A DNA stretch of 64,000 nt from Fibrobacter sp. (GTDB lineage: Bacteria; Fibrobacterota; Chitinivibrionia; Chitinivibrionales; Chitinispirillaceae), in assembly GCA_012515615.1 (NCBI GenBank), contig JAAYYB010000308.1, positions 7,761-71,760 of the forward strand, read 5' to 3'. This document shows, piece by piece, positions 38,226-56,594 of this stretch. Under the pieces are notes generated by a model. That model was not told where the DNA came from, did not search any database, and was given only the letters and a program-made list of their open reading frames with translations. Numbering within the stretch: position 1 is the stretch's first letter; each line of letters begins with the position of its first letter. Both the position numbers and the translations under genes were made by a program.

Positions 38226-38249
38226 AGAGACGCCCGGCCGGGCGTCTCT
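38226..38249. repeat. GC palindrome family, copy 1 (perfect, intergenic)
   Basis: AGAGACGCCCGGCCGGGCGTCTCT. The minus strand is preceded by CGTAG. It lies between the stop at 38263 and the SD of the 38203 gene. Confidence 0.9.
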
Positions 38250-38262
38250 ACGTTAAAACAAT

Positions 38263-38478
38263 CTAACCGACATACCGGTGCAGTTTTTTGTCCCACACCC
38301 TGCCCCTGCAGGCTTTCCCCTCGCGGGAGAAACCACTGTCAAGCTCAACCGGCACCGGTGCCCATGTACCGCAGATATTGCACAGGTCCCCGCGCCTGTA
38401 ACAAGAACCGCATTGGGGACACGGGTGACCCGATGTCTGCCGGATGGAAATTGAATTATCACTGTTTGATGGTTCCAT
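38263..38478 (-). CDS. Small zinc-ribbon protein (Com-like in size and Cys pattern)
   Basis: 71 aa with CPQCG...CNICG. It fills the gap between Mor and the next gene. Confidence 0.4.
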   Translation of the reverse strand: MEPSNSDNSISIRQTSGHPCPQCGSCYRRGDLCNICGTWAPVPVELDSGFSREGKACRGRVWDKKLHRYVG

Positions 38479-38779
38479 TTTTCTTGTGCTGAGCTATGAT
38501 TTCTAAAACTCGACGCTGAGATAAACCACACTGACGAACTATTCGCTTGACTGTAGAAAACTTCCCATCGTAATTAGCGATTATAAACTTTGAGACTGAT
38601 ATAGACTTTTTATATTTAGGCACAATCAGAGTTGTCCCTTCAAAATTCTTCATCAAATCAACAGCGGTTTTAACGCCCAATATCTCCGCGACCATCCGCA
38701 TGTCGCTGTTCGGCATGTCGTCAATCTTCATCTCATTCCAATCAGGTGCAGACGGCAGTTTAGTTTTCGAAGCATTCAT
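38459..38779 (-). CDS. mor: Mor-family middle/late transcription activator
   Basis: MVAEILGVKTAVDLMKNFEGTTLIVPKYKK...IIANYDGKFSTVKRIVRQCGLSQRRVLEII parallels Mu Mor (..HLGGGQVYIPRG...WNDFNGRNVSELTTRYGVTFNTVYKAI). The ATG at 38779 has a GGGAG SD. Confidence 0.75.
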   Translation of the reverse strand: MNASKTKLPSAPDWNEMKIDDMPNSDMRMVAEILGVKTAVDLMKNFEGTTLIVPKYKKSISVSKFIIANYDGKFSTVKRIVRQCGLSQRRVLEIIAQHKKNGTIKQ

Positions 38780-38795
38780 AGAGAAACTCCCGAGA

Positions 38796-39119
38796 TTAAT
38801 TGTGAACAATTGCGGCGCCGCTTGTAAGCAGAAACCGCCTCTTATCATCTATACTTTCAACCACGCATACCGGCATATCGGACCAGATCGTGGAATCAAA
38901 GAAAAGAATTTTTACCCTGATTACTTTACCGGCACTTCTGACAGAGATTTCCTCCCCGGGCAGACCGTATTCCAGCTTCCCCAGTTCAATCAACAGGAAC
39001 TGGCTGTCAAGTACCAGCTGGTGATGCGTGTTCAGGTGATACTGCGCCAGCCTGGCTGTCGATTTTATAAGATCCAGGAGCCAGGCCTTTTTTTCGGAAG
39101 GGGAGGTCAGTGAGTGCAC
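38796..39119 (-). CDS. Hypothetical early protein
   Basis: 107 aa with a GTG start preceded by an AGGAGG SD, which is itself preceded by the ATGGAC/GTCCAT repeat array. Confidence 0.45.
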   Translation of the reverse strand: MHSLTSPSEKKAWLLDLIKSTARLAQYHLNTHHQLVLDSQFLLIELGKLEYGLPGEEISVRSAGKVIRVKILFFDSTIWSDMPVCVVESIDDKRRFLLTSGAAIVHN

Positions 39120-39442
39120 GGGGCCTCCTGAGGGGGGACATGGACTGAATGGACGGAATGGACGGAATGGACGCCGGAGACATCAGAGACAATGGCGGTT
39201 ATGGTTTTTTGACCCTGCGCGGATCTGTGTTTGTCGATTACAGCTATGATGCTGTCCCATTCCGACTGCAGAAAGTGGCCCTTAAGAGAATCATAAGAAG
39301 ACAGACCGACGCGCCTGTCTATCGGGTTGGAACTTGTCATGAGATAGACAAGAAGAGCCAGGTCCATATACCTGTAGTGGTTCCAGTGCCAGGCCTGCTT
39401 TGCGGGGTATCCGCCGATTGTGAGATTCATATTATTATTCAT
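39107..39442 (-). CDS. Hypothetical early protein (C-terminus runs through the 9-bp repeats)
   Basis: 111 aa. The SVHSVHSVHSVH tail is the translation of the repeat array. Confidence 0.4.
   Translation of the reverse strand: MNNNMNLTIGGYPAKQAWHWNHYRYMDLALLVYLMTSSNPIDRRVGLSSYDSLKGHFLQSEWDSIIAVIDKHRSAQGQKTITAIVSDVSGVHSVHSVHSVHVPPQEAPCTH
39139..39174 (+). repeat. ATGGACNNN tandem array (4 units, 9-bp period)
   Basis: ATGGACTGA ATGGACGGA ATGGACGGA ATGGACGCC. Confidence 0.9.
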
Positions 39443-39451
39443 TTAAAGTGC

Positions 39452-40069
39452 CTATAAATACTTTGTAAAGTCTGTTTCAATGGTCAGATCCGGCATGATG
39501 AAGGTCTCGTTCATGCAGGCTCCGACACGGTTGATTTTCAGAGAGAACCGTTCGCTCATTGCTTTAATATCCCTGTCTATTTGGGCAACAAGACTACCAG
39601 GGAGAGTTTTCCCGCCTCCCCGATGGTCCTCATTTATGGTAAGTCCGGAAAAACCTTTGCTGTAGAGCCGGTCGATCAAGGCGGGCTGCAGTCTGTGTGC
39701 CATTACTCCACCGTAAACCTTCGTTTTACAATGTAATGCGGATGGTATTTCATACAGGCTGTCGTGAATGGATAAAACGATAGATGAAAACTGCCCTGCA
39801 GCCGGAGAGTCGAGAATACCGGAGTTAGAGGTGGCTAAATGTACCTGGTCGAAAATTGCCCGGGCGGCGCCTGTTATCATAAAGAAGAGCGGGTGCAATG
39901 TAGGCTCGCCGCCGGTGAGCATAACCGCACTGTGCCCGTCAATCCGCATGCTCCTGAGAACCGAGAGAATTCTAACCAGACTGTCAGATTCTCTGAAATC
40001 TCTGAGTTTACTGGTGATGCAGTACGGACAGTCGTTGTAGCATTTTGCTGTCAATATGTATTTCAGCAC
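39452..40069 (-). CDS. Small radical-SAM enzyme
   Basis: 205 aa with the CX3CX2C cluster KCYNDCPYC at residues 10-17 and the SAM-binding-type motif MLTGGEPTLHP. It is embedded in the Mu-type early operon next to Gam. Confidence 0.75.
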   Translation of the reverse strand: MLKYILTAKCYNDCPYCITSKLRDFRESDSLVRILSVLRSMRIDGHSAVMLTGGEPTLHPLFFMITGAARAIFDQVHLATSNSGILDSPAAGQFSSIVLSIHDSLYEIPSALHCKTKVYGGVMAHRLQPALIDRLYSKGFSGLTINEDHRGGGKTLPGSLVAQIDRDIKAMSERFSLKINRVGACMNETFIMPDLTIETDFTKYL

Positions 40070-40596
40070 TTTTCCTCCCCGACCGTTTCCGCCTCTTCAG
40101 CCTTGAGGAGAGCCTTCACCAGTTTGTCAACAGAACTGTCGGTTGCCTTTATAACAACCTGATCGCCGGTTTCAGATACAGAGACGCCCAGCCATTTGAG
40201 TTCCTGAACAGAGAGGTTTTCAAGAGCGCCCTTGACCGGTTTCTCGGTGGTTTTGACAAGAGTATCGAACTGGTCCGGAAAGTGTTTGCGGATGAGTTTC
40301 ACCACCTGGGCGTCATCATCCCACTCGATAGCCCCTTTACCTTTCTGGAAACCGACCTTTATACCATGAAAGACAACCGTTCTGGGTTTTACAAACAGAT
40401 CGGCCGAGTCCTCAACTGCAGAGTGAAGGAAGCTCCGTTTCTGGGAGACCGCGGCCACCGCTTTTTTGATGCCTGGAAGGAGCCTTCTTTTAGCCGCCTC
40501 TATTTCATCGTTGAGGTTCTGAACTCTCTCGACCAGAACATTTCTGGCATCGGAGAAATCTTTTGTCAATGCTTCAATTTCGGAAAGTGTGAACAT
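40063..40596 (-). CDS. gam: Gam-like host-nuclease inhibitor protein
   Basis: 177 aa with an N-terminal coiled coil, then KPRTVVFHGIKVGFQKGKGAIEW...VVKLIRKHF, matching the Mu Gam layout. Confidence 0.6.
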   Translation of the reverse strand: MFTLSEIEALTKDFSDARNVLVERVQNLNDEIEAAKRRLLPGIKKAVAAVSQKRSFLHSAVEDSADLFVKPRTVVFHGIKVGFQKGKGAIEWDDDAQVVKLIRKHFPDQFDTLVKTTEKPVKGALENLSVQELKWLGVSVSETGDQVVIKATDSSVDKLVKALLKAEEAETVGEEKC

Positions 40597-41096
40597 CAGG
40601 AATTCTCCTTATGTAATTGTGAACGTTTCATGCTCTCAATAGCTGTCTTGATTTTGCGGACATGCAGGGGTTCCAGCCATTCAGGTTTTGACACTCCTGT
40701 TATCCTGGTGATGAATTTCTCATAGGCATAATGCCTGGAGCGCGGATCGGGAGCGAATGACACATCCGCCCACATCGCTTCAAGCATCCGGAGCTGAGCG
40801 GGAGAGGCCATCCCGGGGCGTTTGCCGAGATCGTCATATTTTTTGGGCCGGCAGGAAGAGAGAGGCGCCCGGCCAGGCGCCTCTACGGATCTGTGCACGC
40901 CGGCGGCGGTGGCCATTTCGGAAAGGCGGCGGATCAGCTCGTTTGCCTTCTGGAAGGTCAGCTTTTTGGATGATGGACGGACATTGACAGGGAAGGTCCC
41001 GAAGGACGCAATCATTGCCCTGTAGTCATCATCGGGGATCCTCAGGAGATGAGCCAGTGTATGTATGCGTTTAACCTGTGAGGGTTGTGCATTCAT
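40596..41096 (-). CDS. gemA: GemA/gp16-like protein (DUF1018)
   Basis: It has two repeats of the I/L-H-x-L...DD-YR / QLRMLEAMW type, joined by a linker that carries a GC palindrome copy. Confidence 0.65.
   Translation of the reverse strand: MNAQPSQVKRIHTLAHLLRIPDDDYRAMIASFGTFPVNVRPSSKKLTFQKANELIRRLSEMATAAGVHRSVEAPGRAPLSSCRPKKYDDLGKRPGMASPAQLRMLEAMWADVSFAPDPRSRHYAYEKFITRITGVSKPEWLEPLHVRKIKTAIESMKRSQLHKENS
40861..40884. repeat. GC palindrome family, copy 2 (in the GemA-like CDS)
   Basis: AGAGGCGCCCGGCCAGGCGCCTCT followed by ACGGA. Translated as SVEAPGRAPLSS. Confidence 0.85.
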
Positions 41097-41236
41097 GGCC
41101 TGGACCCCCTGATCCAGATTTCTTTTCCGGTTCTGGTTTTTTTGATCTGTCCACAGGCAATCAGGCGCTTACGCTTGTGATCGTAAAGCCTTTTTGCCTG
41201 GGCAGTGCGGGGATCGATATCGTTTGAAATGATCAT
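41092..41236 (-). CDS. Possible 47-aa ORF between MuB and GemA
   Basis: It has an ATG with a GAGG SD 11 nt after the MuB stop, and its stop overlaps the GemA start (ATGA). It is below the ORF-track size cut-off. Confidence 0.3.
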
Positions 41237-41246
41237 GTTTACCGCC

Positions 41247-42134
41247 TCAGATAATGAGTGATTTTGACGATTCCAGGACTATATCGGGAGTGATTGCACA
41301 GTTATTGATTTCCGCGACACGCTGCGACCTGCGGATCAGTTTTGACAGGACGCGAGTATTACTGTTTGACGCTTCGTGGAAGGTCCTATGGATTCCGTTA
41401 CTCCCGGGAAGAAGCGATGAAACGATCTGTTCCGTATCGACAGATGTCAGCGGCTGCAGGTTCGCGGCGATACCGATACGGGAGTAGATCTGCGCGAACT
41501 CGCCTTTTTTACCACGCAGGTTCGATATGAGCCGTCTCATACCGCAGAACAGGATACCGACACCGGCCTTATCGTGAACGCGTCTTATCAACTCAAGGGC
41601 CCGCAGGGGAAGGTTTTCCGCTTCATCTATTATGATGAGACGGCCGGAATTCTCCATCCTTTTTACGATATCGGTAAACAGGTCGTGAAGCCGCCCGCGG
41701 CCATCACCGATCCCCGATCTCTGATGGAGTTCCGAGAACAGATCCTTGGCGGTATACCCGGCATCGGCCTCGATGAGAATCGTATCACTGTTACGCCTGG
41801 CGTATTCCTTGACAGCCTCGGTTTTTCCGAGTCCGGCATCACCGTAAGCGGCACCCATCTCTCCGTCAAGGTGACAGATCCGCGCAGTCTCGAAGACTTT
41901 TCTGGCTACAGATGTCATTATGAATTTCACCTTAAGCCTCGGAGCCTGTTTCCGTTCCTGCCACCGTTCCAGCAGCTGCTTAACGGACGCATCCATTTTT
42001 GCTTTATCGCCTCTGAATGTGTCGCTCAGATATTGACTGATATAGCCCGGAGAAATCCCCAGAGCTCTTGACACTGCGCTCTGCGGTGTTCCTGTTGAAT
42101 CGAGGTACTGTCTTAACTCATTTCTTACACTCAT
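41247..42134 (-). CDS. MuB-like AAA+ transposition ATPase
   Basis: 295 aa with an N-terminal HTH (QSAVSRALGISPGYISQY), Walker A GDAGLGKT and Walker B LIIIDEAENL. It lies immediately downstream of the transposase. Confidence 0.8.
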   Translation of the reverse strand: MSVRNELRQYLDSTGTPQSAVSRALGISPGYISQYLSDTFRGDKAKMDASVKQLLERWQERKQAPRLKVKFIMTSVARKVFETARICHLDGEMGAAYGDAGLGKTEAVKEYARRNSDTILIEADAGYTAKDLFSELHQRSGIGDGRGRLHDLFTDIVKRMENSGRLIIIDEAENLPLRALELIRRVHDKAGVGILFCGMRRLISNLRGKKGEFAQIYSRIGIAANLQPLTSVDTEQIVSSLLPGSNGIHRTFHEASNSNTRVLSKLIRRSQRVAEINNCAITPDIVLESSKSLII

Positions 42135-42159
42135 ACATTCCTCCCGTTGAATGTTGAAG

Positions 42160-44166
42160 TTAACCCATTACGTCTTCTTTAGACGGTATATCTGACTCGA
42201 AAAGGTAAATTTCAGCCTTGCGGCGTTCCGGCGGCTGAAAAGATGACAGATCAGCGGTGTGTTCAGCCTGCATTTCACGATCTTTCTTTATTGCCTGGTC
42301 GATAAGAGTGTTCTGCACATGCAGAATTTTTGGTGAGGGGTCGATGTCCACCGCGAAGGCATCGGTACCGGTTTTCAGGTGAAAGAGCCGCTCCTGTGGT
42401 GTGGGCGCCTGTGAGACACTGGCGTAAGCCCGGGTGATTTTTCTGTCGCGGTTTTTGGCAGCCAGAGCGTCACGCAATTCTGATTTTTCGATTTCTGTTT
42501 CTGCTAACGCTGGAGCTACAAATTCGGCGATCCGCGCCTTTCCCAGGAGCTCATCTGTTCTGGCGTCATGAACCCAGGCCCGGGCATAGTCCTGCAGATC
42601 CCTGCGCAGATAAACTTTGACACCTTTCACTCCGGACATCCATTCAGCCCAGTATGTAACCTGCAGTTCGCTGTCTCTTATGCCGTTGCGGCCGATTGTT
42701 ACGATCCCGGATGTTCTCATGCAGAACAGACGCAGGCTGTCTTTGTCAACAAACCGTTTTTCCTTGAACTCTTCAGCCCAGGCTTCATCCGGAGAGCGCC
42801 CCTGGAGGTTTTTCCCCTTTGACACCATCCTGTTCCGTATTGTACGGATATAGCTATCAAAGAGAACGTCGAATTCATTGAAGGTGAGGATCTTTCCACT
42901 TTTGATCTCATCAGCCAGTATCTCCGGCCGCTCGGTCACATCACCGCCGCGATAACCAACCATGTGCTTCGAGAACAATTCTTTATTTTTCAGAAAATCC
43001 CGCTCGATCGGTTTGGTCTGGGCGTTATACGGCTGGGCAAAACGCGGAGAAACACCGATAACATGCAGCATGCCATTGGCCTTGACCTCATCGACTGTGA
43101 CTTTGACACGTCGAACGCGGCCACCGGCGAAATCGCGGCAGCGGTAGTCTTTTCCGTTGTCAAGAAGCACTTTCTGCGGTAAGCCGTGCTCCAGCGCAGC
43201 TAAATAAAAGGAGTAGAAAATGTGATCACTGTTTGGAGCCTCTGCATGCACATACCATCCGAGCCATTTCCCTGTTTTAAAGTCTCGCCAGGCAGTTACC
43301 CAGGGAAAACACGCTTTTCCATCAGGGAGCATCACGGCAACATCGATCTGAGCATGGTCTGAAACCCATACAGCGCCCGCAGCTACATGCGCGTAGTCAC
43401 GGTCTACATAGGGTGCATATTTACGGTTGTGGGATGCGGCGCCGTAGCGAGCGTAGTGCTGAGCCTGTTCCGGGACTTCGTTATCGATCCACCGCAGGAA
43501 CGCTTTCACGCCAGGGAAATTGTCTTTTGTAATTGACGGATCAAGAGAGCGGGCATAGCCGAGTGTATAATACCAGCAGCTCTGAGCGGAGGGCGCTCCC
43601 TCTTTGAGGTAAACGGCCTTGTAGTACTCGCCCCATTCTTTTTTGACAGAACTGACGCCCTTGTTTTTACCATACTGAGCCAGGAGGCCGGAGATGCCGT
43701 GTTTTTTGTAGGTTTTACGGGCACCGGTGAGACAGGGGTAGGATGTCTGCAGGTCCGGAGTGTTTTCGTGCTCTTTATTCCATTGTATAAGGAAGTTGCG
43801 GAGCGCGCTTCCTTTGAGACCCTCTGTAGCCCTGAAGAGTGTCAGGTATTTATCGGCGCGCTTGCGTGCCCATTCGGGCGCGCGGGCATAAAGCTCGGCT
43901 TCAACCTCGGTTTCATCACAGTTTAAAAGCTCGTTATCCTGGCTTTGAAACTTGCTTGAAAAGTATTTCGCCCGGGTTTCCGGCGGGAGCGAAGAGAGGT
44001 TTATCTGGTACTGCTCTCCACCGGCTCCCTTTACAAGACGGGCATCATAGCGGCCGCTCTTGCAGTGATAGCAGACAGTACGGGACGGCAAACCGGTAAG
44101 ACCGGCAACCTCCCTGACTGTCAGCCAGGTGTCGTTTTGTGTGGAAAGGGAATTGTTGAGAAACAT
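42160..44166 (-). CDS. MuA-like DDE transposase
   Basis: 668 aa with an N-terminal HTH (WLTVREVAGLTGLPSRTV) and an rve-type core carrying Asp in VWVSDHAQIDV and LLDNGKDYR and Glu in KPIERDF. Confidence 0.85.
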   Translation of the reverse strand: MFLNNSLSTQNDTWLTVREVAGLTGLPSRTVCYHCKSGRYDARLVKGAGGEQYQINLSSLPPETRAKYFSSKFQSQDNELLNCDETEVEAELYARAPEWARKRADKYLTLFRATEGLKGSALRNFLIQWNKEHENTPDLQTSYPCLTGARKTYKKHGISGLLAQYGKNKGVSSVKKEWGEYYKAVYLKEGAPSAQSCWYYTLGYARSLDPSITKDNFPGVKAFLRWIDNEVPEQAQHYARYGAASHNRKYAPYVDRDYAHVAAGAVWVSDHAQIDVAVMLPDGKACFPWVTAWRDFKTGKWLGWYVHAEAPNSDHIFYSFYLAALEHGLPQKVLLDNGKDYRCRDFAGGRVRRVKVTVDEVKANGMLHVIGVSPRFAQPYNAQTKPIERDFLKNKELFSKHMVGYRGGDVTERPEILADEIKSGKILTFNEFDVLFDSYIRTIRNRMVSKGKNLQGRSPDEAWAEEFKEKRFVDKDSLRLFCMRTSGIVTIGRNGIRDSELQVTYWAEWMSGVKGVKVYLRRDLQDYARAWVHDARTDELLGKARIAEFVAPALAETEIEKSELRDALAAKNRDRKITRAYASVSQAPTPQERLFHLKTGTDAFAVDIDPSPKILHVQNTLIDQAIKKDREMQAEHTADLSSFQPPERRKAEIYLFESDIPSKEDVMG

Positions 44167-44196
44167 GAGCGCTCCGTGAAAAGAAAATTCTGTTTA

Positions 44197-44222
44197 ATGG
44201 ACAGAAATGGACTGACATGGAC
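44197..44222 (+). repeat. ATGGAC tandem array (3 units, 10-bp period) upstream of the transposase gene
   Basis: ATGGACAGAA ATGGACTGAC ATGGAC, 30-55 nt upstream of the MuA start. Confidence 0.85.
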
Positions 44223-44273
44223 GTATACTGACGAATGAGACTATTTTCTGCAGCAAAGATGATAGTGACAGTT

Positions 44274-44474: not shown

Positions 44475-44477
44475 GGT

Positions 44478-44836: not shown

Positions 44837-44838
44837 GT

Positions 44839-46487: not shown

Positions 46488-46495
46488 AAGATAAG

Positions 46496-46530
46496 GCCCG
46501 GACTCCGAGAGGGGGTCCGGGTTTACTTTC
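46496..46530 (+). terminator. Rho-independent terminator after the repressor-moron unit
   Basis: CCCGGAC-TCCGAGAGGG-GTCCGGG followed by TTTACTTT. Confidence 0.6.
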
Positions 46531-46553
46531 ACTTTCACAATTAGGAGGCGGTT

Positions 46554-46748: not shown

Positions 46749-46914
46749 TTGTAACCCTGAGACCTGGAATAGCGAGCTGGCACCCTGTTTCTAAAGCAGC
46801 CATTGCGTCATTCAAGGGGCCGGGTTTATCGTTAATGTCAGGAAAGTTTTTGAGAATAAAATCAGAGATTTCACGGGTTACCCGCTGGTGTTTCTGAACA
46901 TTGGTTTCTGCCAT
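46723..46914 (-). CDS. Hypothetical small protein
   Basis: 63 aa counted from the ATG at 46914, which has an AAGGAG SD. It contains an ...AMAALETGCQLAI helix similar to that of the 47055 gene. Confidence 0.45.
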   Translation of the reverse strand: MAETNVQKHQRVTREISDFILKNFPDINDKPGPLNDAMAALETGCQLAIPGLRVTIKYGPVCE

Positions 46915-46950
46915 TAGATACTCCTTTTGCACCACGACAAATGGTTTATT

Positions 46951-46980
46951 AGAAAAGCCCGGAACGAAAATGCTCCGGGC
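46951..46980 (-). terminator. Rho-independent terminator/attenuator after the gene downstream of G
   Basis: The minus strand reads GCCCGGAGCATTTTCGTTCCGGGC followed by TTTTCT. Confidence 0.55.
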
Positions 46981-47025
46981 CAGAATGTTCTTATTCTGGA
47001 ATTACCTGAGATGTCAAAGACCTAC

Positions 47026-47074
47026 CGCGGATTAGTTACCGCAGATTGAGCGGATTACGCTGATTGCGCGGATT
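47026..47074 (+). repeat. CGCGGATTA-type tandem array (5 units)
   Basis: CGCGGATTA..CGCAGATTG AGCGGATTA CGCTGATTG CGCGGATTC. It overlaps the 3' end of the 47055-47339 ORF. Confidence 0.75.
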
Positions 47075-47339
47075 CCTGAGCTGCGGGTTTATCAAACTTT
47101 GAAACGCCATCACCTGCGTACTGTATTACTTTCCCCAGCCTCATCCTTGCATCTTCGAGATGTCTGAGTGCCAGGTCCATATTGGAAAACATCTCACTAT
47201 GCTGACCCGGAAATGCCTCTTTGTTATCGAGTTCAACATGATGGCATTGCAGATCCCTGCGGATCGCAGTCACCATATTGCCGCACTGTTCGCGCAGCGA
47301 GTCGCAGATTTGTGTAATAGTTTTCGGATGCATAAACAT
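47055..47339 (-). CDS. Hypothetical small protein immediately downstream of G
   Basis: 94 aa with the ...DLALRHLEDARMRLGKVIQ helix motif seen in many small phage proteins. Confidence 0.5.
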   Translation of the reverse strand: MFMHPKTITQICDSLREQCGNMVTAIRRDLQCHHVELDNKEAFPGQHSEMFSNMDLALRHLEDARMRLGKVIQYAGDGVSKFDKPAAQESAQSA

Positions 47340-47351
47340 CTCCTTTGTTTG

Positions 47352-47975
47352 CTATCTAAAATTGTCGCCCTGAGATAGAATCAGGTACCTTTTTACCGAG
47401 TCGTTAATTTCCTCTTTAGCATCAACGGTGAGCACCATGAAGGGCCTGGGAGGGAGGCTGATTTCGTGTGCTTTTGCCGTGTAGTCGCGCTCGACAACAC
47501 GTTTGTGATGAGCCTTTGCAAAGACAGATAAATTGAGCAGCCGTCCGCTCTCACCCTGCCGCAGGAGCACGCCGTAGCGGTCGGTGCGCAGCCTGGCAAC
47601 GCCTTTACGGGCAGGAATCTTTATCGGGTTATTTCCGGTACCGAAGTTCTGCGCGGCCGCATAAGCTTTGTTTGTGGTTACCTTCGCGCTCTCCTTATCG
47701 TAGTCGGAAGCCAGGGACGCGGCCAGTTCGCCTCTTTGCTGGAGGATCTTGCCGGGCCAGTAACCTTTGCGTTCCCGTTCCTTGATCGTTCGTTTCTTCA
47801 GTTTCGGCCAGGGATCGGGACGTCCCTCCTGTTCGAAATTCTCCTCAACGCAGTCGAGCATGATCCCGGAGATCCGCCGCATGACAGGGGTCATGTCCTC
47901 GACGCGGGAAACGAGCTCCCGGAGACCATCCATGATTTCCTGGTCGTTCTGGGTAATGAAAATTGGATCGCTCAT
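47352..47975 (-). CDS. Virion morphogenesis protein (Mu gpG family)
   Basis: 207 aa. MRRISGIMLDCVEENFEQEGRPDPWPKLKKRTIKERERKG...ILQQRGELAASL fits the gpG/Phage_tail_S pattern. Confidence 0.8.
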   Translation of the reverse strand: MSDPIFITQNDQEIMDGLRELVSRVEDMTPVMRRISGIMLDCVEENFEQEGRPDPWPKLKKRTIKERERKGYWPGKILQQRGELAASLASDYDKESAKVTTNKAYAAAQNFGTGNNPIKIPARKGVARLRTDRYGVLLRQGESGRLLNLSVFAKAHHKRVVERDYTAKAHEISLPPRPFMVLTVDAKEEINDSVKRYLILSQGDNFR

Positions 47976-47993
47976 TGCAGCTCCAGGGAGAGT

Positions 47994-48026
47994 ATGGACG
48001 GAATGGACTGTATGGACGGAATGGAC
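47994..48026 (+). repeat. ATGGACNNN tandem array (4 units, 9 bp)
   Basis: ATGGACGGA ATGGACTGT ATGGACGGA ATGGAC. It lies between the G start and the -35 of the 48042 promoter. Confidence 0.9.
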
Positions 48027-48041
48027 AACAGATGAGAATAT

Positions 48042-48070
48042 TTGACAAACTGCTTAAAATTTCGTATTAT
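48042..48070 (+). promoter_or_regulatory. Near-consensus sigma-70-type promoter
   Basis: TTGACA (48042-48047), an exactly 17-nt spacer, then TATTAT (48065-48070). GGAAAGGAG SD and the ATG at 48091 follow. Confidence 0.6.
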
Positions 48071-48090
48071 ATGGGAAAGGAGTGAAAGGT

Positions 48091-48288
48091 ATGACAGATA
48101 CGACAGAGAAACTGGAACAGGCTGTGCAGGAGTACATGAAACAGCATCCCAACGCTGACAGCCCGCTGTGCCTTCTTGCGGATCTTGGAGACGAAGGTCT
48201 CTTGAAAGTTTTGAAAAAGGCCAACGGCCGGGAGATAGTGTTTGAAGACACTGACGGCCTCGATGAAATAAAGTGGAAGTTTCTTTAA
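48091..48288 (+). CDS. Small acidic protein, oriented against the flanking MuF and G genes
   Basis: 65 aa (MTDTTEKLEQAVQEYMKQHP...), rich in D/E, with its own promoter and SD. The track start is the GTG at 48082. Its stop overlaps the MuF stop region. Confidence 0.55.
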   Translation: MTDTTEKLEQAVQEYMKQHPNADSPLCLLADLGDEGLLKVLKKANGREIVFEDTDGLDEIKWKFL

Positions 48289-49778
48289 TCACCGAAAACC
48301 TCCTTCCCGTAAGTTCGCATCGCCTTTGCCGTTTGAGGAAGCATCTTCTCCAGGAACGGATTCCCTCTGAAATACAGTTCCAGCGTGTGTGAATGAAATT
48401 CATGCCTGGGATTGTCTGCGCTTTTGCGCCAGTAACTTTTCGTGTGGCCATCACCGTATTTCCCGCTGCTCAGACTGCACACAGTATCACTGAATGACAG
48501 ATACATCTTGTGGGCATCAGTTTCAGGGGCTTTGAGATTGAGAGAATCGAGCATCTCTCTGCGGTGCTGGAAGTAATTCCCGGGCAGCAGCTTTTCCCTG
48601 ACGCTCTTGTCGAGCGCACCGAGCTCCGAAACGGCTGTATCCCAGACCTTGTTGAATTTCGAGAGCAGCTCCGGTGTTTTCAGGACATTCTTTTCAAAGA
48701 ACGCATGAGCGTATTCGTGAATGGTTGTCCACTCCTTCACGAATCCGGACCTGGTTGACCTGAATCCCAGGTGAACAGTATCTGATGCCGGGCGGTAGAA
48801 AGATCTGGAATCCCTGCCCTTTACAAAAGGAACCTTGCGTTCCATCCTGTCCCAGAATGAATCCGGCAGAACATCTTTACCCACTTCCTTTTCGAGGTTA
48901 TCCGGAATAAAGACACTTTTAAGCGGAGCCTTTTTCCCCAGGTCTTTTTTTACTGCCGCGGCAATATCGCTGTCGTATTTCGACCAGTCGGGCTGCCATT
49001 TGGCTTTCCCCGGGTTATAGTTCCATCCGGGGTCCGGAGCAATTTTTTTACCGGTGGCCGGATCGGTGTAGACTGTAACCTCTTCCATAAGGCCGGTAGT
49101 CTTTGACACCAGGCGATCCTCTTTTGAGAGGGTGCCGCCTGAAGAGACGCCCGGCCGGGGGTCTGTACTTGACAGAGTAAGAGAGCGGTCCTGAAGGTTT
49201 CTGCTGTTAAGAGAACGGACACGGCACCGGCAGTTGAATGCCAGGGGCGGATAGAAAGAATCCCAGAAAGGATCGTTTATGGGAAACACCTTTCCGTTAA
49301 GCGCAGCGTGCTGGGGGCGTGTCCGGGAGTCGAGCACGGCCACATACTGAAGGTACGGGCGGTCGGAGGCGTTATCAACCTGATCTTTCCACCGTCCGGC
49401 CATATACGCTGACTGCATGTTTGTGCGGTAGATGGTTTTAAGCCTTGACACAGAGCCGAGCTGCACCGCGGTTGCCTGCCCGGATTGATCCCCGAGCCAC
49501 TGCTTCCCCCACCATCCCATTGCTTTCAGGCGCGGTTCCAGTTCTTTACGGAACTGCTCGAATGTGAGTCCCTCATTGAGTGCCTTGTCAACAGCCCTGC
49601 GGATCTCAGTAAGGATATCGGCTCTCGCCGCTTTAGCGACCGTAAACGCATGCGCGTGGGCCTCCTGCCAGGTATCGTACCAGTTCCAGGAGATTGCATA
49701 CCCCTTGGAGCGGAAATAATCCACAGCCTGGTGAGGAGGGAGACCGATAGCGAATGAGAGATCGACAGGTGATGACAT
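48285..49778 (-). CDS. MuF/SPP1-gp7-family head morphogenesis protein with a C-terminal HExxH extension
   Basis: 497 aa. The MuF core has YRTNMQSAYMAGRW...RTRPQHAALNGKVF...FNCRCRV. The roughly 190-aa extension contains TIHEYAHAFF. Confidence 0.85.
   Translation of the reverse strand: MSSPVDLSFAIGLPPHQAVDYFRSKGYAISWNWYDTWQEAHAHAFTVAKAARADILTEIRRAVDKALNEGLTFEQFRKELEPRLKAMGWWGKQWLGDQSGQATAVQLGSVSRLKTIYRTNMQSAYMAGRWKDQVDNASDRPYLQYVAVLDSRTRPQHAALNGKVFPINDPFWDSFYPPLAFNCRCRVRSLNSRNLQDRSLTLSSTDPRPGVSSGGTLSKEDRLVSKTTGLMEEVTVYTDPATGKKIAPDPGWNYNPGKAKWQPDWSKYDSDIAAAVKKDLGKKAPLKSVFIPDNLEKEVGKDVLPDSFWDRMERKVPFVKGRDSRSFYRPASDTVHLGFRSTRSGFVKEWTTIHEYAHAFFEKNVLKTPELLSKFNKVWDTAVSELGALDKSVREKLLPGNYFQHRREMLDSLNLKAPETDAHKMYLSFSDTVCSLSSGKYGDGHTKSYWRKSADNPRHEFHSHTLELYFRGNPFLEKMLPQTAKAMRTYGKEVFGD
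49143..49168. repeat. GC palindrome family, copy 3 (decayed, in the MuF CDS)
   Basis: AGAGACGCCCGGCCGGGGGTCTGTAC. It is read in a different frame (TDPRPGVSS) and sits at the core/extension junction. Confidence 0.7.
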
Positions 49779-49785
49779 TTTTCCG

Positions 49786-51294
49786 TTACTGCTTTCCGTT
49801 CAGGCGTCCCCAGATTTCACTGACAAATTTTGCCCTTGCGAGCATGGTCACCATCTGCTCGTCATCCATGTCGGGATACTGTGACACGAGATGCCGTTTG
49901 ACATCGTCGACTGATTTTCCTTTCGCAAAGAGAGAAATGACGGGTTTAAGGAGGCCCTCGGCCTGGTTCTGCAGGTCGGGGTCGGGGATGTCGGAGATTG
50001 CCTGATCGAGGAGATCCTGATCGGGGAATCGGCCGGAACCGGATGATAGAGACGCCCGGCCGGGCGTCTCTACGGAATGGGCGGGGGCGGCGAATTGGGA
50101 ATCGGGCGCCGGCGGATTGGATGTATCAATATCGCCGTCTTCGAAATTATAGGCGCGTTTGTAATATTCAGGTGTAAATTTGAGGCCGGTATCTGACAAG
50201 ATTTTGTCACGCTCGGCAAGGTCCTTATCGACGTCTTCTTCTTCCCACATTGACCAGACGGGACGGGCGCCCTGGAAGTTGAGGTCCCAGATCCAGGTGA
50301 TAAGCTGATTTACAGTGTTTTCAACGATTCTTTTATCGGCGTTTACGATGTCTTTACGCACCTGTATTGCGGCATCCTCACCGCCCAGTTTTCCGGCGGT
50401 GCTTGTCACCGCACCTTCATGGCCGAGCTGGACAATAGAGACCTCTTCCTTGCAGAACCGCAGGAGCCGCTCGTAAATATCTGCACTTGCGCCTTTTCCT
50501 TCTGATTCCAGAAGTTCAACTGAGGAATCGTTGGGTATGACCGCGATGGCATCCTGGATCATCTTTTCGAGACCATCGAGCAGCAGATCCTGTTCATCAT
50601 CGGAGGCAGAACGCGGGGTCTTCCCAACCGCAAAGGGCATCCCGTATTTCTCTGAAAATGTCACCCAGAATTTCAGTCCGCCTTTCTTAAATGTAGTGGG
50701 CCAGAAACAGGCGCTGAGGTCCGGAAAACCGTAAGGGTTCCTGTAGGTTGCCTCCTGGCGCGGGTTGAGAAATTTCTTATCCGGGAGTTCCTCTCCGGTC
50801 AAGCTTCCAGGCACGCGGAGACGGAGCGTATTCTCCTGGTCGTAGCAGAACCATTCCTGGGGTTTGCCGGTGATACGTGCGGGCAGAATCATGTTCCCCA
50901 CACGTTCCCAGATTATTTCGAGCACGGCGTACCCGAACTGTCCGGCATCGAGGATTTCCCCGATCAGAGTATGCAGGTCAAGATTGTCAAACAGGGAAAC
51001 GAGTTCCTTTGTCTGACGGCTGCGGGATTTTCCGCGGTCGATACCGGACTCAAGCTGCAGTACTCCTGATTTGCGATTGCGGATACATCCGCGCAGATGC
51101 GGATCAGTCTGCAGTTCCCGGTAGACATCGATGTCTTTCCCCATTCTTTTAAGAACAGGGTCGGGGTTAGGGAGATACATCCCGGACCAGAGAAAATCCA
51201 TCCTGCGGCGGGTGGCTATTTCGGCGGAGAGATTTTTCGTTATCGGGACGAAAGTGCTGTTATCGAGCCAGAGACCTTTTTGATTCATGGTCAA
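49786..51294 (-). CDS. Portal protein (Mu gp29 / DUF935 type)
   Basis: 502 aa. The position between terminase and MuF and the overall pattern fit DUF935 portals. Confidence 0.8.
   Translation of the reverse strand: MTMNQKGLWLDNSTFVPITKNLSAEIATRRRMDFLWSGMYLPNPDPVLKRMGKDIDVYRELQTDPHLRGCIRNRKSGVLQLESGIDRGKSRSRQTKELVSLFDNLDLHTLIGEILDAGQFGYAVLEIIWERVGNMILPARITGKPQEWFCYDQENTLRLRVPGSLTGEELPDKKFLNPRQEATYRNPYGFPDLSACFWPTTFKKGGLKFWVTFSEKYGMPFAVGKTPRSASDDEQDLLLDGLEKMIQDAIAVIPNDSSVELLESEGKGASADIYERLLRFCKEEVSIVQLGHEGAVTSTAGKLGGEDAAIQVRKDIVNADKRIVENTVNQLITWIWDLNFQGARPVWSMWEEEDVDKDLAERDKILSDTGLKFTPEYYKRAYNFEDGDIDTSNPPAPDSQFAAPAHSVETPGRASLSSGSGRFPDQDLLDQAISDIPDPDLQNQAEGLLKPVISLFAKGKSVDDVKRHLVSQYPDMDDEQMVTMLARAKFVSEIWGRLNGKQ
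50048..50076. repeat. GC palindrome family, copy 4 (perfect, in the portal CDS)
   Basis: AGAGACGCCCGGCCGGGCGTCTCT followed by ACGGA. Translated as SVETPGRASLSS. Confidence 0.9.
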
Positions 51295-52871
51295 TATCCT
51301 TTAATAATGGAAACACGGTTCTTGCGCGGGCGGCTTTTTACCCGCACCGGTCCGGCGTTTGATTTTGCTGCCATCTCTGCCAGGCAGTAGGCCCACCAGT
51401 GATCGGCGTGCCCTGTCGCATCGGTGGCATCGGCATCGTAGCGGTTATTCCCCCCCACAACCATTTTTCGTATTGAATGGAAAGAGTCCCTGATTGTCTG
51501 GTCCGGAGGAATACGGGAGCGGCGGTCTTCGAGCGCGTTTTTGCCATCAACGGCCAGTTCCTCTTTTGTCGCAGAGGTGAAATTCACACCCTCTGTCATG
51601 TACTCCCCGTACTTCTCCTGAGCCTGTTCGACAAGTGGTATTCCCATTCCTGTCCGGTCAATGCACACCCGTCTCATCCGTTTCAGTTTCATAACTCTGT
51701 CAAGGTACTCCATCTGAATTTTGAACCGAGTATTTGAGAATGCTTTGACATGGCGTGTGTAACGTACATCACCAAGTTTCTGCACAATCCAGAGAACAGA
51801 AAAGTGCCTCGTTCTGGCGATATCCCATCCGGCGTACAGGTCACCTTCCTGGAGCATGTTGAGCTGCTCCAGAGTCATGAGAAGATTTTCCGATTCGGCA
51901 AGGTAGATCATTTCGTAGGGGACAAACGCAGTCGCGGCATCGACGGCAATACAGCAGTACTCCTCATTCCAGACATCCTCGCTGCGGCAGTCCTCGTATT
52001 CCCTGAGAAGCCATTCGACCCGTTCATCTTCGGAGAGTGCTTTCCCGCAGATCTTGTCCGCGACGCCATCAATGACGGCATCGAAGATCGTAACGGTATG
52101 CAGAGACCAGCTTACCTTCCCAGCTTTTGCATCCTGGACAAACCGGTAGTACAGGCACTGCTGGCCGTGATGAGTTGAAAGGATACGAATCGGGTAGCCC
52201 CACATGGCTGAAGGCTTAGCGGCTTTCCACATCCCAGCCTGGTCATCATGCCACGCGAATTCATCGAGGACCACTTTCCCGCCCTTGGAGCGGAAGCGTT
52301 TGGGGTTGCTTGTCAGAGCATAGATTTTGCCACCGTTTGAGAACTCAATTCCCAGGGCGGTAATTTTCTTGTCGGAATCCAGGACAACTTCACCGAGAGC
52401 CTTTGCCCCGATGTTAAACATCTTTGCCCACTGGCCGCAGTAGTCTATATATTCTTTTGCCGCGGATTCATCAGCGGATGTAAAGTACACTTTCCGCACG
52501 GGTCTTCCGGGCGTGTATTCCTTCTTAAGAACTATATCGCGTACATCTTCGAAGGACTGAACATAGGTCGCACCGATACGGCGGGATTTTTCCCAGACCT
52601 TGATTCGGGAGTCATCGGCGAGCCATCGGAGCTGGTAGCCGAGAAAGTATTTGTCTGCTTTTTGGGAGGCGTGAGACGCCCGGCCGGATGAGAGAGACGC
52701 CCGGCCGGATGAGAGAGGCGCCCGGCCGGGCGCCTCTACGGAATTGCGGATCCCGGAAATGCGTTTTGCGGAGGCGCGCAGCGCAAGGCGGAATTCCTGG
52801 CGCCTGTCGGAAGCCGGAGACGTCCCGTCGGGTGTCTGTACGGTTGAGAGTTCAGTCGCTGTCGCTGTCAT
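51291..52871 (-). CDS. Terminase large subunit (Mu gp28-like)
   Basis: 526 aa, upstream of the portal with an overlapping stop/start. It has an N-terminal ATPase region (KSRRIGATYV) and a C-terminal nuclease-like region. Confidence 0.75.
   Translation of the reverse strand: MTATATELSTVQTPDGTSPASDRRQEFRLALRASAKRISGIRNSVEAPGRAPLSSGRASLSSGRASHASQKADKYFLGYQLRWLADDSRIKVWEKSRRIGATYVQSFEDVRDIVLKKEYTPGRPVRKVYFTSADESAAKEYIDYCGQWAKMFNIGAKALGEVVLDSDKKITALGIEFSNGGKIYALTSNPKRFRSKGGKVVLDEFAWHDDQAGMWKAAKPSAMWGYPIRILSTHHGQQCLYYRFVQDAKAGKVSWSLHTVTIFDAVIDGVADKICGKALSEDERVEWLLREYEDCRSEDVWNEEYCCIAVDAATAFVPYEMIYLAESENLLMTLEQLNMLQEGDLYAGWDIARTRHFSVLWIVQKLGDVRYTRHVKAFSNTRFKIQMEYLDRVMKLKRMRRVCIDRTGMGIPLVEQAQEKYGEYMTEGVNFTSATKEELAVDGKNALEDRRSRIPPDQTIRDSFHSIRKMVVGGNNRYDADATDATGHADHWWAYCLAEMAAKSNAGPVRVKSRPRKNRVSIIKGY
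52672..52742. repeat. GC palindrome family, copy 5, with a 21-bp tandem triplication of the left arm
   Basis: GAGACGCCCGGCCGG ATGAGAGAGACGCCCGGCCGG ATGAGAGAGGCGCCCGGCCGGGCGCCTCT ACGGA. Translated as SVEAPGRAPLSSGRASLSSGRAS. Confidence 0.9.
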
Positions 52872-56590: not shown

Positions 56591-56594
56591 GGAA

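Follow-up and report, generated by a model that had tools for sequence, protein, structure and literature searches.

The prophage of the analyzed stretch carries five copies of a short hairpin, probably a GTAG-tagged, REP-like selfish element that was kept only at permissive linker sites. All five copies are located in a Mu-like (BcepMu-like) prophage, and the host part of about 34 kb contains none.

The copies were located by a pattern search with AGAG[AG]CGCCCGGCC[AG]GGCG[CT]CTCT, allowing up to two mismatches, which returned five sites in the window, i.e. the whole 64-kb stretch of DNA that was analyzed. The same search gave no match in 100 dinucleotide-preserving shuffles. Over the 64 kb, a core search with up to three mismatches produced no sixth hairpin copy, a half-site search nothing beyond the five known copies, and a general scan for perfect hairpins with GTAG no further site. 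The copies all have the same polarity and lie on the sense strand of co-directional genes. A first-pass annotation of this DNA had reported five copies in one orientation, all in the prophage, and had not seen the motif by eye in the host part; these searches bear out both statements.

The copies at 38226-38249 and 50048-50071 are, as described earlier, identical perfect palindromes (AGAGACGCCCGGCCGGGCGTCTCT). The copy at 52714-52737 reads AGAGGCGCCCGGCCGGGCGCCTCT, in which a left-arm A>G is paired with a right-arm T>C. The copy at 40861-40884, which had been equated with the 52714 copy, shares its G/C type and has one additional change (CCAGG). The copy at 49143-49166 shows two mismatches to the pattern. 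On the plus strand ACG directly follows each copy and the minus strand reads CGT-AGAG, with AGT-ACAG at the foot of the decayed MuF copy; these flanks match the CGTAG and AGTAC noted before. Three copies share 36 nt, including 3-7 nt outside the palindrome (TCC-GT...CTCT-MTCWTCC). This sharing beyond the palindrome fits recombinational copying between phage genes as well as it fits transposition.

Table 1. Hairpin copies and the prophage genes that carry them, in window coordinates.
Feature	Coordinates	Strand	Description
Intergenic copy	38226..38252	-	CGT + AGAGACGCCCGGCCGGGCGTCTCT, perfect 24-nt palindrome
GemA-like gene	40596..41096	-	Pfam PF06252, E = 2e-11; hosts GemA copy
GemA copy	40861..40887	-	G/C type; sense-strand C>T gives G.U pair
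MuF-like head morphogenesis gene	48285..49778	-	Pfam PF04233, E = 3e-27; hosts MuF copy
MuF copy	49143..49169	-	Decayed, AGT + ACAGACCCCCGGCCGGGCGTCTCT
Mu-type portal gene	49786..51294	-	Pfam PF06074, E = 4e-89; hosts portal copy
Portal copy	50048..50074	-	Perfect copy, C-terminal region after Portal_Mu domain
Large terminase gene	51291..52871	-	Pfam PF03237 and PF17289 (Terminase_6N/6C); hosts terminase copy
Terminase composite copy	52673..52740	-	In N-terminal extension of large terminase

Translation of the host genes (Table 1) agreed with the earlier description of three copies in one frame, the MuF copy in another, and the 38226 copy between a stop codon and a Shine-Dalgarno sequence. The GemA copy is translated as SVEAPGRAPLSS, the portal copy as SVETPGRASLSS, and the terminase copy as SVEAPGRAPLSS followed by GRASLSSGRAS (whole composite SVEAPGRAPLSSGRASLSSGRAS), while the MuF copy is read in the other frame as STDPRPGV(SS). 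The 38226 copy begins 1 nt past the TAA that ends the small upstream gene, ahead of the Shine-Dalgarno sequence of the next gene in the lysis region. An NCBI protein named as coming from a Fibrobacter sp. MAG matches the window portal at 100% identity.

The proposed location of the coding copies in linker or terminal regions is supported by Pfam domain bounds and homologue alignments. In MuF the element occupies residues ~204-212, just beyond the Phage_Mu_F domain (residues 58-187); in the portal protein it occupies residues ~414-425, with the Portal_Mu domain at residues 56-383; and in the terminase it occupies residues ~45-70, with the N domain beginning at residue 95. The alignment with homologues that the first-pass annotation had suggested revealed a clean 8-aa (24-nt) insertion in MuF relative to 13 distant homologues, and placed the GemA copy within a linker whose length varies. 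Eleven distant portal homologues lack the portal segment, and so do the 86%-identical portals of L102 and L123, two related prophages from independent samples that are only 1-6% diverged; both of these portals are 10 aa shorter.

The MuF and GemA sites are occupied in both relatives, with an identical MuF copy and a perfect version of the hairpin at the GemA site. The third shared site is the terminase in L102 and the intergenic site in L123, where the same copy as at 38226 occurs in the same place, giving four of the five sites shared overall. A target-site duplication or precise empty site was not found for any window copy. Judged from these comparisons the copies are mostly inherited and not fresh, so that any recent insertion that the first-pass annotation might imply is not supported. 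Because four of the five sites are conserved in relatives, current mobility is not demonstrated by the window copies.

The terminase site has a composite structure. Behind one full hairpin of the G/C type (52714-52737, with the CGT tag) stand two additional right halves, an in-frame tandem expansion of the 21-nt unit CCGGCCGGGCGYCTCTCTCAT, for which TRF gave a period of 21, 2.7 copies and 97% matches at 52673-52729. In L102 the terminase carries just one copy, and this site is 42 nt shorter than in the window.

As RNA the four intact copies fold with about -20 to -24 kcal/mol. No shuffle folded as well as the A-type copies at 38226 and 50048 (z about -4; for 38226, -20.4 kcal/mol and z = -3.9), and 4 of 200 shuffles folded as well as the GemA copy (z -2.3). 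The terminase copy was folded only as an 81-nt composite with its repeats (-45 kcal/mol, z -5.3). The hairpin of the MuF copy was no more stable than shuffles, in line with its earlier classification as decayed. The A>G/T>C change had been interpreted as compensatory. Pairing is indeed kept, but this is weaker evidence of structural selection than was assumed, since conversion within the palindrome can also yield such a change.

The window element is the apex variant CCGGCCGG of a 28-nt hairpin superfamily, GTAGAGACGC-N8-GCGTCTCTAC, whose stem spans 12 bp and shows covariation of its inner pairs. The outer stem GTAGAGACGC does not vary between phyla or phages, in contrast to the apex; of 26 distinct apexes, 24 have Watson-Crick pairs at the inner positions 11/18 and 12/17, where 3-4 pair types occur. 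The flanks of superfamily copies are unrelated and the unit therefore ends at GTAG and CTAC. The exact 28-mer GTAGAGACGCCCGGCCGGGCGTCTCTAC was found with unrelated flanks in MAGs or genomes labelled Chloroflexus, Patescibacteria, Desulfatiglans, Fibrobacteraceae, Moduliflexus and CSSED10-310, and in 20 metagenome contigs; most of these sites are between housekeeping genes. This exact apex is scarce (17 REP-like stretches among 185,579 genomes). The superfamily as such occurs in bacteria of several phyla, mostly between genes.

A search of related phages had also been recommended, and the superfamily proved common in viral contigs, especially in Mu-type head genes. IMG/VR yielded about 100 viral stretches with 126 matches, nearly all exactly 28 nt. 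Long ORFs hold 20 of 113 copies, exclusively in the two stop-free frames; among these ORFs are Mu-type portals, a tape-measure protein, capsid fusions, a MuF-like protein and one with the copy in an integrase linker. Between phages of 90-95% identity, an indel of 56 nt was seen that contains a 28-mer. In the L197 portal, six tandem 42-nt units accompany a hairpin extended by two further right halves, as in the window terminase copy. The hairpin family is widespread and apparently undescribed.

In the reading that we favor, the hairpin would be a tiny non-coding selfish palindromic DNA with a 10-12-bp G+C-rich stem and a 4-nt loop, its core being 24 nt long, or 28 nt including both GTAG/CTAC ends. 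Copies would have entered a BcepMu-like transposable prophage of a Fibrobacter lineage some time ago, and most would now be inherited with the phage. The survivors would be harmless insertions, one right after a stop codon and four in flexible linker or terminal segments. The palindrome has two stop-free frames (VE.PGRA.L or RDARPGVS); read in these, the four coding copies would add 8-12 residues rich in Pro, Gly and Ser. The paired A>G/T>C change may stem from palindrome-internal conversion, the in-frame 21-nt triplication in the terminase from slippage on the repeated half, and the MuF copy from decay; loss or gain of the portal copy may have accompanied recombination patches. Spread would most likely have occurred in trans by a HUH/Y1 transposase recognizing the folded single-stranded hairpin and its GTAG foot, with hairpin-driven template switching or ectopic conversion as the alternative. 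The in-trans HUH/Y1 transposase route is established for REPs and for IS200/IS605 ends. REP/RAYT systems were reportedly treated by Nunvar in 2010 and by Ton-Hoang and Messing in 2012.

The RayT-like gene at 5968-6942, the only Y1 gene found in the window, had been put forward as the link to such a transposase. This link is not supported, as the repeat that flanks the gene, about 45 nt long (TCTCACCCCAGAG), is unrelated to the hairpin. A single-sequence phmmer search, which a divergent Y1/HUH could escape, found no homologue of this Y1 protein near about 160 related hairpin loci (~1.4 Mb), and no Y1/HUH gene was found among the part of the prophage ORFs screened with Pfam and PHROGs.

The copies could instead be selected as functional cis-acting phage signals, with their coding positions a tolerated by-product, but we consider this unlikely. 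In the early and late transcripts they might act as RNA hairpins that influence stability or processing, or that make translation pause where protein domains meet. Alternatively, a conserved protein of the phage or the host might bind them as DNA or RNA. The common polarity of all five copies on the sense strand is consistent with such a role, and the invariant outer stem with its variable apex suggests sequence-specific recognition. The two single-arm variants (in the GemA copy of the window and the terminase copy of L102) allow a G.U pair on the sense strand but not on the other, and unrelated Mu-type phages again have independent hairpin variants in the C-terminal region of the portal and where portal and MuF meet. 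The conservation of four of the five sites in L102 and L123 says little, because these are only 1-6% diverged. The loss of the MuF stem, unchanged in the relatives, argues against a signal, although at ~99% overall identity it is weak either way. The portal copy is dispensable in two close relatives, positions vary between phages, tandem amplification occurs inside ORFs, and the same 28-mers lie between unrelated bacterial housekeeping genes. None of the hairpins has a terminator tail, and the 38226 copy has no T tract and is not terminator-like.

It is quite improbable that the copies spread in the phage simply by recombination, gene conversion or template switching between short homologous linkers, with no transposase involved and with the palindrome mainly promoting slippage and the mosaic junctions by which phage modules are shuffled. 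Such exchange would accommodate the unit of 36 nt, longer than the palindrome, in three copies, and the half-element tandem repeats in the window terminase, L011 and L197 and beside several viral copies. The portal copy borders a divergent mosaic patch (~50000-50835), where identity to L102 changes from ~40-55% to >90% within ~60 nt; however, of the four mosaic boundaries seen against L102 only this one falls on an element. In the comparison with L123, a gene indel of 222 nt begins 6-8 nt from the intergenic copy, but it is bounded by repeated SD-like sequences that alone explain it. Furthermore, exchange within one phage cannot account for the occurrence of identical 28-mers in several phyla, where their flanks are unrelated.

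Selection for the peptide SVE[TA]PGRA[SP]LSS, as a protease site or flexible linker of virion and DNA-handling proteins with incidental palindromy, is close to refuted: the same 12-residue segment does recur in one frame in three proteins, in linkers or termini, but the paired arm changes alter it (T>A, S>P) and keep base pairing, and distant homologues lack the segment instead of encoding it by the other codons expected of a protein motif. Since the element is read in two frames, is untranslated in its intergenic copy, and lies as a 28-mer between housekeeping genes of other phyla, the sequences indicate that the conserved unit is the nucleic-acid hairpin and not a peptide, as the first-pass annotation had concluded.

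That annotation had recognized REP architecture in GTAG plus a GC-rich hairpin, and in-frame REP/RPE insertions are indeed documented (PMC3733652). REPs of the GTAG super-family (Di Nocera et al. 2013, PMC3733652) are likewise short GC-rich hairpins with GTAG at the foot; they have stems of 6-13 bp, subfamilies defined by complementary stem changes, occasional G-T pairs, singletons right after stops, a minority of intragenic copies that add short peptides, and families common to evolutionarily distant organisms. In contrast to these, the 28-nt form pairs the whole GTAG with CTAC, so that a perfect palindrome is tagged on both strands, and the superfamily has a fixed length of 28 nt with an invariant 10-bp outer stem across phyla. 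The window apex has a low copy number, whereas classical REPs reach hundreds per genome. For the hairpin no REPtron, meaning a RAYT gene with the same repeat on its flanks, was found, and there are no inverted dimers (REPIN/BIME). Abundant GTAG REP families of S. maltophilia and P. syringae are reported to be confined to core-genome regions (PMC3733652), unlike the prophage-confined window copies and a superfamily common in phage contigs.

Rickettsia palindromic elements (RPE-1 and the short RPE-4/RPE-6) are also in-frame, translated palindromic selfish DNA at permissive sites. Their sequence is unrelated, RPE-1 measures ~100-150 bp, the short RPEs are CGTC-tagged (PMC3733652) where the window hairpin is GTAG-tagged, and RPEs occur only in Rickettsia chromosomes, not in phages. 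IS200/IS605 MITEs and palindrome-associated elements resemble the hairpin in being non-autonomous and mobilized in trans, with terminal or subterminal hairpins, but MITEs exceed 50-100 nt compared to 24-28 nt, and no target duplication, internal sequence or cognate IS was found for the hairpin. The SDR of filamentous cyanobacteria, reportedly described by Elhai et al. in 2008 (Genome Res 18:1484) as 21-27 nt long, proposed to be mobile and present in hairpin contexts, are similarly very small, dispersed and hairpin-associated; SDR are not known to be associated with phages. The commonest superfamily member, GTAGAGACGCGATTAATCGCGTCTCTAC, is presumably one known from cyanobacterial genomes, and a related superfamily variant was found on a cyanobacterial plasmid.

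A degenerate search of the window with AGAGRCGCC-N6-GGCGYCTCT, allowing up to two mismatches, returned exactly five matches, at 38226, 40861, 49143, 50048 and 52714, and none in 100 dinucleotide-preserving shuffles. No extra copies were recovered from the window by a core search with three mismatches, by a search with the right half, or by a generic scan for perfect hairpins preceded by GTAG. The ca. 34 kb of host sequence and the remaining prophage are therefore free of copies, which bears out the first-pass annotation, where five copies had been placed in the prophage and none in the host part. The copies are singletons of one polarity spaced 0.9-8.3 kb apart, and the sole clustering is a tandem half-repeat in the terminase gene. 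Three of them have 36 nt in common, short flanks included, which could reflect a preferred target or the copying of sequence from one phage gene to another. The 3' flanks of the five copies read CAAACAG, CTCTTCC, TCAGGCG, ATCATCC and CTCATCC. Direct repeats around the copies were not seen. Rfam and ARAGORN searches of the window reported a tRNA-Met at 19325 and nothing else.

The copies at 38226 and 50048 are identical, perfect palindromes of 24 nt with a stem of 10-12 bp and a loop of 4 nt. Those at 40861 and 52714 carry an A>G change paired with a T>C change, the 40861 copy having one change more, and the copy at 49143 in the MuF gene is decayed. On the minus strand CGT precedes each copy (AGT in the decayed one), giving (C)GTAGAG...; a GTAG tag at the hairpin end is thus read as (C)GTAG-AG... 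in four of the five, the decayed copy having GTAC. RNA folding gave about -20 to -24 kcal/mol for the four intact copies. No shuffle folded as stably as the A-type copies at 38226 and 50048 (z about -4), four of 200 shuffles folded as well as the GemA copy (z -2.3), and the MuF copy could not be distinguished from its shuffles. The terminase copy was folded solely together with its repeats, and this 81-nt composite reached -45 kcal/mol (z -5.3). The paired A>G and T>C changes had been taken as compensatory; the pairing itself holds, but it need not mean selection on structure, because a change can become fixed in both arms when a mismatch in an extruded hairpin is repaired. A role as intrinsic terminator was ruled out, since there is no T tract and none of the five sites was called terminator-like.

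Four of the five copies are intragenic, and their host genes are listed in the table. The fifth, at 38226, begins 1 base past a TAA stop, upstream of the lysis genes. The prophage is of the transposable, BcepMu-like type, with MuA, MuB, Gam, a Mor-like activator, an amidase, gpG, a sheath protein and a tape-measure protein among its other genes; its portal protein matches, at 100% identity, an NCBI protein labelled as coming from a Fibrobacter sp. MAG. The GemA copy is translated as SVEAPGRAPLSS, the portal copy as SVETPGRASLSS and the terminase copy as SVEAPGRAPLSS-GRASLSS-GRAS, while the MuF copy is read in another frame as STDPRPGVSS.

Prophage genes of the window that contain a hairpin copy
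Gene	Coordinates	Strand	Pfam match	Element residues
GemA	40596-41096	minus	PF06252	about 71-82
MuF	48285-49778	minus	PF04233, domain 58-187	about 204-212
Mu-type portal	49786-51294	minus	PF06074, domain 56-383	about 414-425
Large terminase	51291-52871	minus	N domain from residue 95	about 45-70

Alignment of the host proteins with homologues revealed additional segments in MuF and the portal. In MuF exactly 8 residues (STDPRPGV, 24 nt) are added in the window and a close relative compared with 13 distant IMG/VR homologues, and the surroundings of this insertion are otherwise well aligned. In the portal, 11 distant homologues lack the segment, the gap being 10-12 residues long. The GemA element lies within a linker that varies in length among 14 homologues, which were obtained from a large protein search (no GemA relatives were found in IMG/VR). 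The N-terminal extension of the terminase could not be aligned with distant homologues. The MuF indel, the portal gap and the variable GemA linker agree with the earlier proposal that the copies sit in linker or terminal regions.

Two related prophages from independent samples, L102 (a Logan assembly of SRR7082981) and L123 (JGI sample 3300064362), align colinearly with the window, their identity to it being about 90-99%. The decayed MuF copy is common to all three. The GemA copy is perfect in L102 and L123, and a C>T change in the window produces a G.U pair on the sense strand. Furthermore, the intergenic copy is also found in L123 and the terminase copy in L102. Since these sites are shared, most of the window copies are inherited with the phage. 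The terminase gene of the window is 42 nt longer than that of L102 due to two additional right halves (TRF: period 21, 2.7 copies, 97% matches), and the portals of L102 and L123 are without the element and 10 residues shorter. A precise empty site was not found for any window copy.

Comparison with these prophages also brought out differences elsewhere. Patches in MuA (42367-43552) and portal (50000-50835) show 56-85% identity to L102 with sharp edges, the genes being otherwise 97-100% identical, which indicates mosaic recombination within essential genes. A 205-aa radical SAM gene at 39452-40069, weakly QueE-like by PHROGs, separates the Gam-like gene from the following early gene; as it is missing from L102 and L123, it is a lineage-specific moron. 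L123 is also without the very basic 77-aa ORF at 37970-38203, which is flanked by the intergenic hairpin and the amidase gene, and two similar SD-like sequences, GAGGAGAATAGTCATG and AGGAGAATAACCATG, occur at the ends of the indel around this ORF.

The exact core was found in 45 stretches when 185,579 species were searched with one genome each. About 17 of these combine a low- or medium-GC context with the GTAG tag; around half of the 17 show the full 28-nt palindrome GTAGAGACGCCCGGCCGGGCGTCTCTAC, and the others have a one-sided or variant tag. The remaining stretches resemble chance GC-rich palindromes of high-GC genomes. The taxon labels of the tagged stretches, which are those of the MAG records, include CSSED10-310 (7 contigs), Desulfatiglans (3 MAGs), Fibrobacteraceae, Chloroflexus, Patescibacteria, Moduliflexus and others. 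The sole Fibrobacterota match to the exact pattern among the GTDB species genomes was a Fibrobacteraceae MAG (L011), with no other Fibrobacter record. In JGI metagenomes 20 contigs contained the exact core, mostly as the full 28-mer. Flanks of the exact-core matches are unrelated, and most sites are between, or at the ends of, housekeeping genes such as those for LeuRS, Mur ligases and MacB/FtsX. A second near-copy was present in 3 of 37 stretches, suggesting tens, not hundreds, of copies per genome. The exact apex variant had no match in IMG/VR or cultured phage records, and among plasmids only a related cyanobacterial variant matched. In the CSSED10-310 MAG (L005, L015, L024, L029, L031, L039, L041) the hairpin is part of a longer conserved unit of ~50 nt, CCAAAAACAAATGTAGAGACGCCCGGCCGGGCGTCTCAAAGGTCAATGG, which occurs on at least seven contigs and has a one-sided tag like the prophage copies.

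Relaxing the apex in the search showed the window element to be one variant of GTAGAGACGC-N8-GCGTCTCTAC, a superfamily that we define by invariant 10-nt outer arms and an 8-nt apex with covarying outer two pairs, 28 nt in total. The window copies agree at 26 of the 28 positions, with apex CCGGCCGG and the terminal AC absent; the full 28-mer with this apex is present in other genomes. IMG/VR yielded 126 matches in 100 stretches, almost all exactly 28 nt long, and the commonest apexes were GATTAATC, AAAATCTT, AAAATATT and ACGGCCGT. Further apexes occur in related forms, one of them on a cyanobacterial plasmid. Genomes rich in hairpins include CSSED10-310, the Desulfatiglans MAGs and Allocoleopsis PCC 7113. 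Pairs 11/18 and 12/17 are Watson-Crick in 24 of 26 distinct apexes, with three to four pair types, and the two innermost positions are unconstrained. This pattern of covariation around free innermost positions makes the structure a 12-bp stem with a 4-nt loop. Since copies with the same apex have unrelated flanks, GTAG and CTAC are the boundaries of the unit. Full-text searches, which cover the text but not the figures of papers, found for the sequence and its halves no paper or unrelated primers only, and the sequence is not present in the supplements of PMC3733652. The commonest cyanobacterial variant may have been described earlier.

Of 113 superfamily copies, 20 were well within long ORFs. 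Their reading frames were VET...ASL in 15 cases and RDA...VST in five, the frame with the TAG stop never being used. Products of these ORFs include two Mu-type portals, a MuF-like protein, two capsid fusion proteins, a tape-measure protein and an integrase, where the hairpin lies in the inter-domain linker. As in the window, the viral portals have the hairpin after the Portal_Mu domain and the MuF-like protein has it right after the MuF domain. The largest protein cluster near superfamily hairpins was the Mu-type portal/MuF pair, at 19 of 98 loci; this raw count is no more than suggestive of enrichment. In the viral locus L197 the portal gene contains six tandem 42-nt units, each composed of a 28-mer and 14 nt, and a second site combines one full hairpin with two additional right halves at an 18-nt period, the same architecture as the terminase copy of the window. 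Relatives of the L197 portal that might show empty sites of intragenic 28-mers were sought in IMG/VR and the protein collection, and none was closer than 66% identity. Between two genes, a 56-nt indel with a 28-mer separates phages that are 90-95% identical. Another viral locus with a 28-nt hairpin, L188 from IMG/VR, has a 939-codon open frame (8639-11455) joining Portal_Mu, Phage_Mu_F and a PBECR2 nuclease-like domain; the frame represents either a fusion of portal and MuF or read-through.

The window and superfamily comparisons establish that the unit is a DNA/RNA hairpin, which behaves as an insertion at permissive sites, in stop-free frames only, and is inherited with the phage. They likewise establish that it varies by half-unit tandem expansion, by decay and by presence or absence.

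The usual view of REPs places them in the bacterial core genome and away from newly acquired DNA, and how they spread is still debated. GTAG-tagged REPs are described from more than 80 species in 8 phyla, with stems of 6-13 bp, complementary stem variants and G-T pairs; copies occur directly after stop codons and a minority is intragenic (PMC3733652). In the abundant families examined, those of S. maltophilia and P. syringae, they are confined to core-genome regions (PMC3733652). The window copies are likewise short, palindromic, GC-rich stem-loops within the 20-40 bp size of such REPs. The REP tag is described as unpaired, whereas in the window its AG is part of the stem, and all four bases of the tag are paired with CTAC in the 28-nt form. 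Unlike the high-copy, dispersed and mainly extragenic REPs, the element has no copy in 34 kb of host DNA and is intragenic in four of five cases, and the window copies, as singletons of one polarity, do not form inverted pairs (REPIN/BIME). The doubly tagged perfect 28-mer, the outer stem that is invariant across phyla and the association with phage genes also differ from GTAG REPs. With Rickettsia RPEs the element shares in-frame insertion at permissive ORF sites, as found in the 8-aa indel of MuF and the ~10-12-aa indel of the portal. Its window unit of 24-28 nt is GTAG-tagged and occurs in another organism group, in contrast to the about 100-150 bp of RPE-1 and the CGTC tag of short RPEs (PMC3733652). 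A MITE would be above about 50 bp, with terminal inverted repeats, a target-site duplication and a related autonomous IS; the element is 24-28 nt long, and no target-site duplication or related IS was found.

The RayT-type gene at 5968-6942 had been put forward as possibly linked to the hairpins. Its product has a Y1_Tnp domain (Pfam PF01797, E = 1.6e-9) and is IS200-like/RayT-like with a C-terminal extension. A genome would have its REPtron at one locus, where the same REPs flank the RAYT gene; no such arrangement was seen in the window or the loci examined. The flanks of the Y1 gene (5780-5900 and 7160-7400) instead contain direct and inverted copies of a ~45-nt repeat (GTTAAGT...TCTCACCCCAGAGRTG) that includes TCTCACCCCAGAG and is unrelated to the GTAG hairpins. 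RAYT genes are described with either the same REPs or unrelated TIRs on their two sides (PMC3733652), and because of its unrelated repeats the gene resembles the latter group. No homologue of the Y1 protein was encoded near related hairpins in 65 genome or metagenome loci and 98 viral loci, in a single-sequence phmmer search that divergent Y1/HUH proteins would escape, and the screened prophage ORFs included no Y1 or HUH gene. The proposed link is thus left without support in these loci; the results do not refute a RAYT model as such. For the first-pass annotation as a whole, the observation stands and so does the interpretation as nucleic-acid insertion, while the connection to the Y1 gene is not supported.

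We infer that the element is selfish DNA of the GTAG-REP kind. It could spread with the help of a single-strand transposase that is specific for the hairpin and acts in trans, or new copies might arise when the hairpin drives template switching or conversion. A functional hairpin acting in cis would fit the invariant stem, the one polarity of the copies, the G.U variants on the sense strand and the recurrence in the portal-MuF region, but is at odds with a portal copy that is dispensable, a MuF copy that has decayed and the intergenic copies in bacteria. Recombination alone is another conceivable means of spread; the portal copy is at the end of the divergent patch at about 50000-50835, where identity to L102 goes from ~40-55% to >90%, but only one of the four mosaic boundaries seen coincided with an element. 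No homologue in the MuF, portal and GemA alignments encodes the peptide with different codons, so that the check proposed for a protein motif came out negative, the claim of a conserved nucleic acid rather than peptide is upheld, and a peptide motif is essentially excluded.

Several other candidates were discarded. A sequencing or assembly artefact was ruled out by the in-frame copies, the variants and the occurrence in independent samples, and a CRISPR repeat by the irregular spacing. A recombinase site such as dif was rejected because several co-oriented perfect palindromes in essential genes would be unstable. Spillover of a host REP family into the prophage was dismissed given the lack of copies in 34 kb of host DNA and the single Fibrobacteraceae MAG among Fibrobacter genome matches.

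Beyond selfish DNA of the REP kind, a bolder and rather improbable reading is that GTAGAGACGC-N8-GCGTCTCTAC represents a separate class of ultra-small elements, mobile or functional, that is associated with phages. Its invariant stem would be recognised by a conserved protein other than a classical RAYT, it would travel across phyla with transposable (Mu-like) and other phages, and it would prefer, or be recruited to, portal, MuF and terminase linkers, where tandem amplification would create new disordered protein segments. If true, this would make it the smallest known element spreading across phyla and a direct source of coding novelty in phage head genes.

Three aspects go beyond the usual picture of REPs: a hairpin family is concentrated in a prophage, unrelated phages have independent apex variants recurring in the same linkers of their Mu-type portal, MuF, capsid and terminase genes, and an identical outer stem is found in bacteria labelled as several phyla. 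Should this be borne out, phages would be targets and possible vehicles of the smallest class of mobile DNA, and hairpins would repeatedly supply virion proteins with linker peptides and in-frame tandem repeats. The superfamily provides a concrete, searchable sequence model toward the responsible enzyme, and the part meriting follow-up is this phage-centred 28-nt superfamily with its repeated in-frame colonisation of Mu-type head genes. In practice, gene calling, repeat detection and recombination analysis of phage genomes can all be led astray by hairpins of this kind.

The window also contains other repeats. Arrays of 3-4 GTCCAT motifs with a 9-10-nt period occur in minus-strand sense at 39140-39173, 44196-44222 and 47994-48026 (TCCGTCCAT) and on the plus strand at 56594-56619 (ATGGACNGA). 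They are located 15-50 nt upstream of four starts, those at 39119, of MuA (44166), of gpG (47975) and of the plus-strand gene after the capsid gene, and could be a common regulatory or operator-like phage element. One array is translated as HSVHSVHSV at the C-terminus of ORF 39107-39442. A tandem repeat of AGGGTTGGCAAA (three copies, 11-12-nt period) at 34339-34373 is near ~34.06-34.1 kb, where both the L123 similarity and the L123 contig stop, and could mark transposase-binding repeats at the prophage end. A 56-nt near-perfect palindrome at 54088-54143, AAAGTCTTGTGCGGTTCCGCACTGCGATATCGCACTGCGGAACCGCACAAGACATT, lies in the intergenic region from which the leftward terminase/portal operon and the rightward head/tail operon diverge. 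It is conserved in L102 and is likely an operator or bidirectional promoter element.
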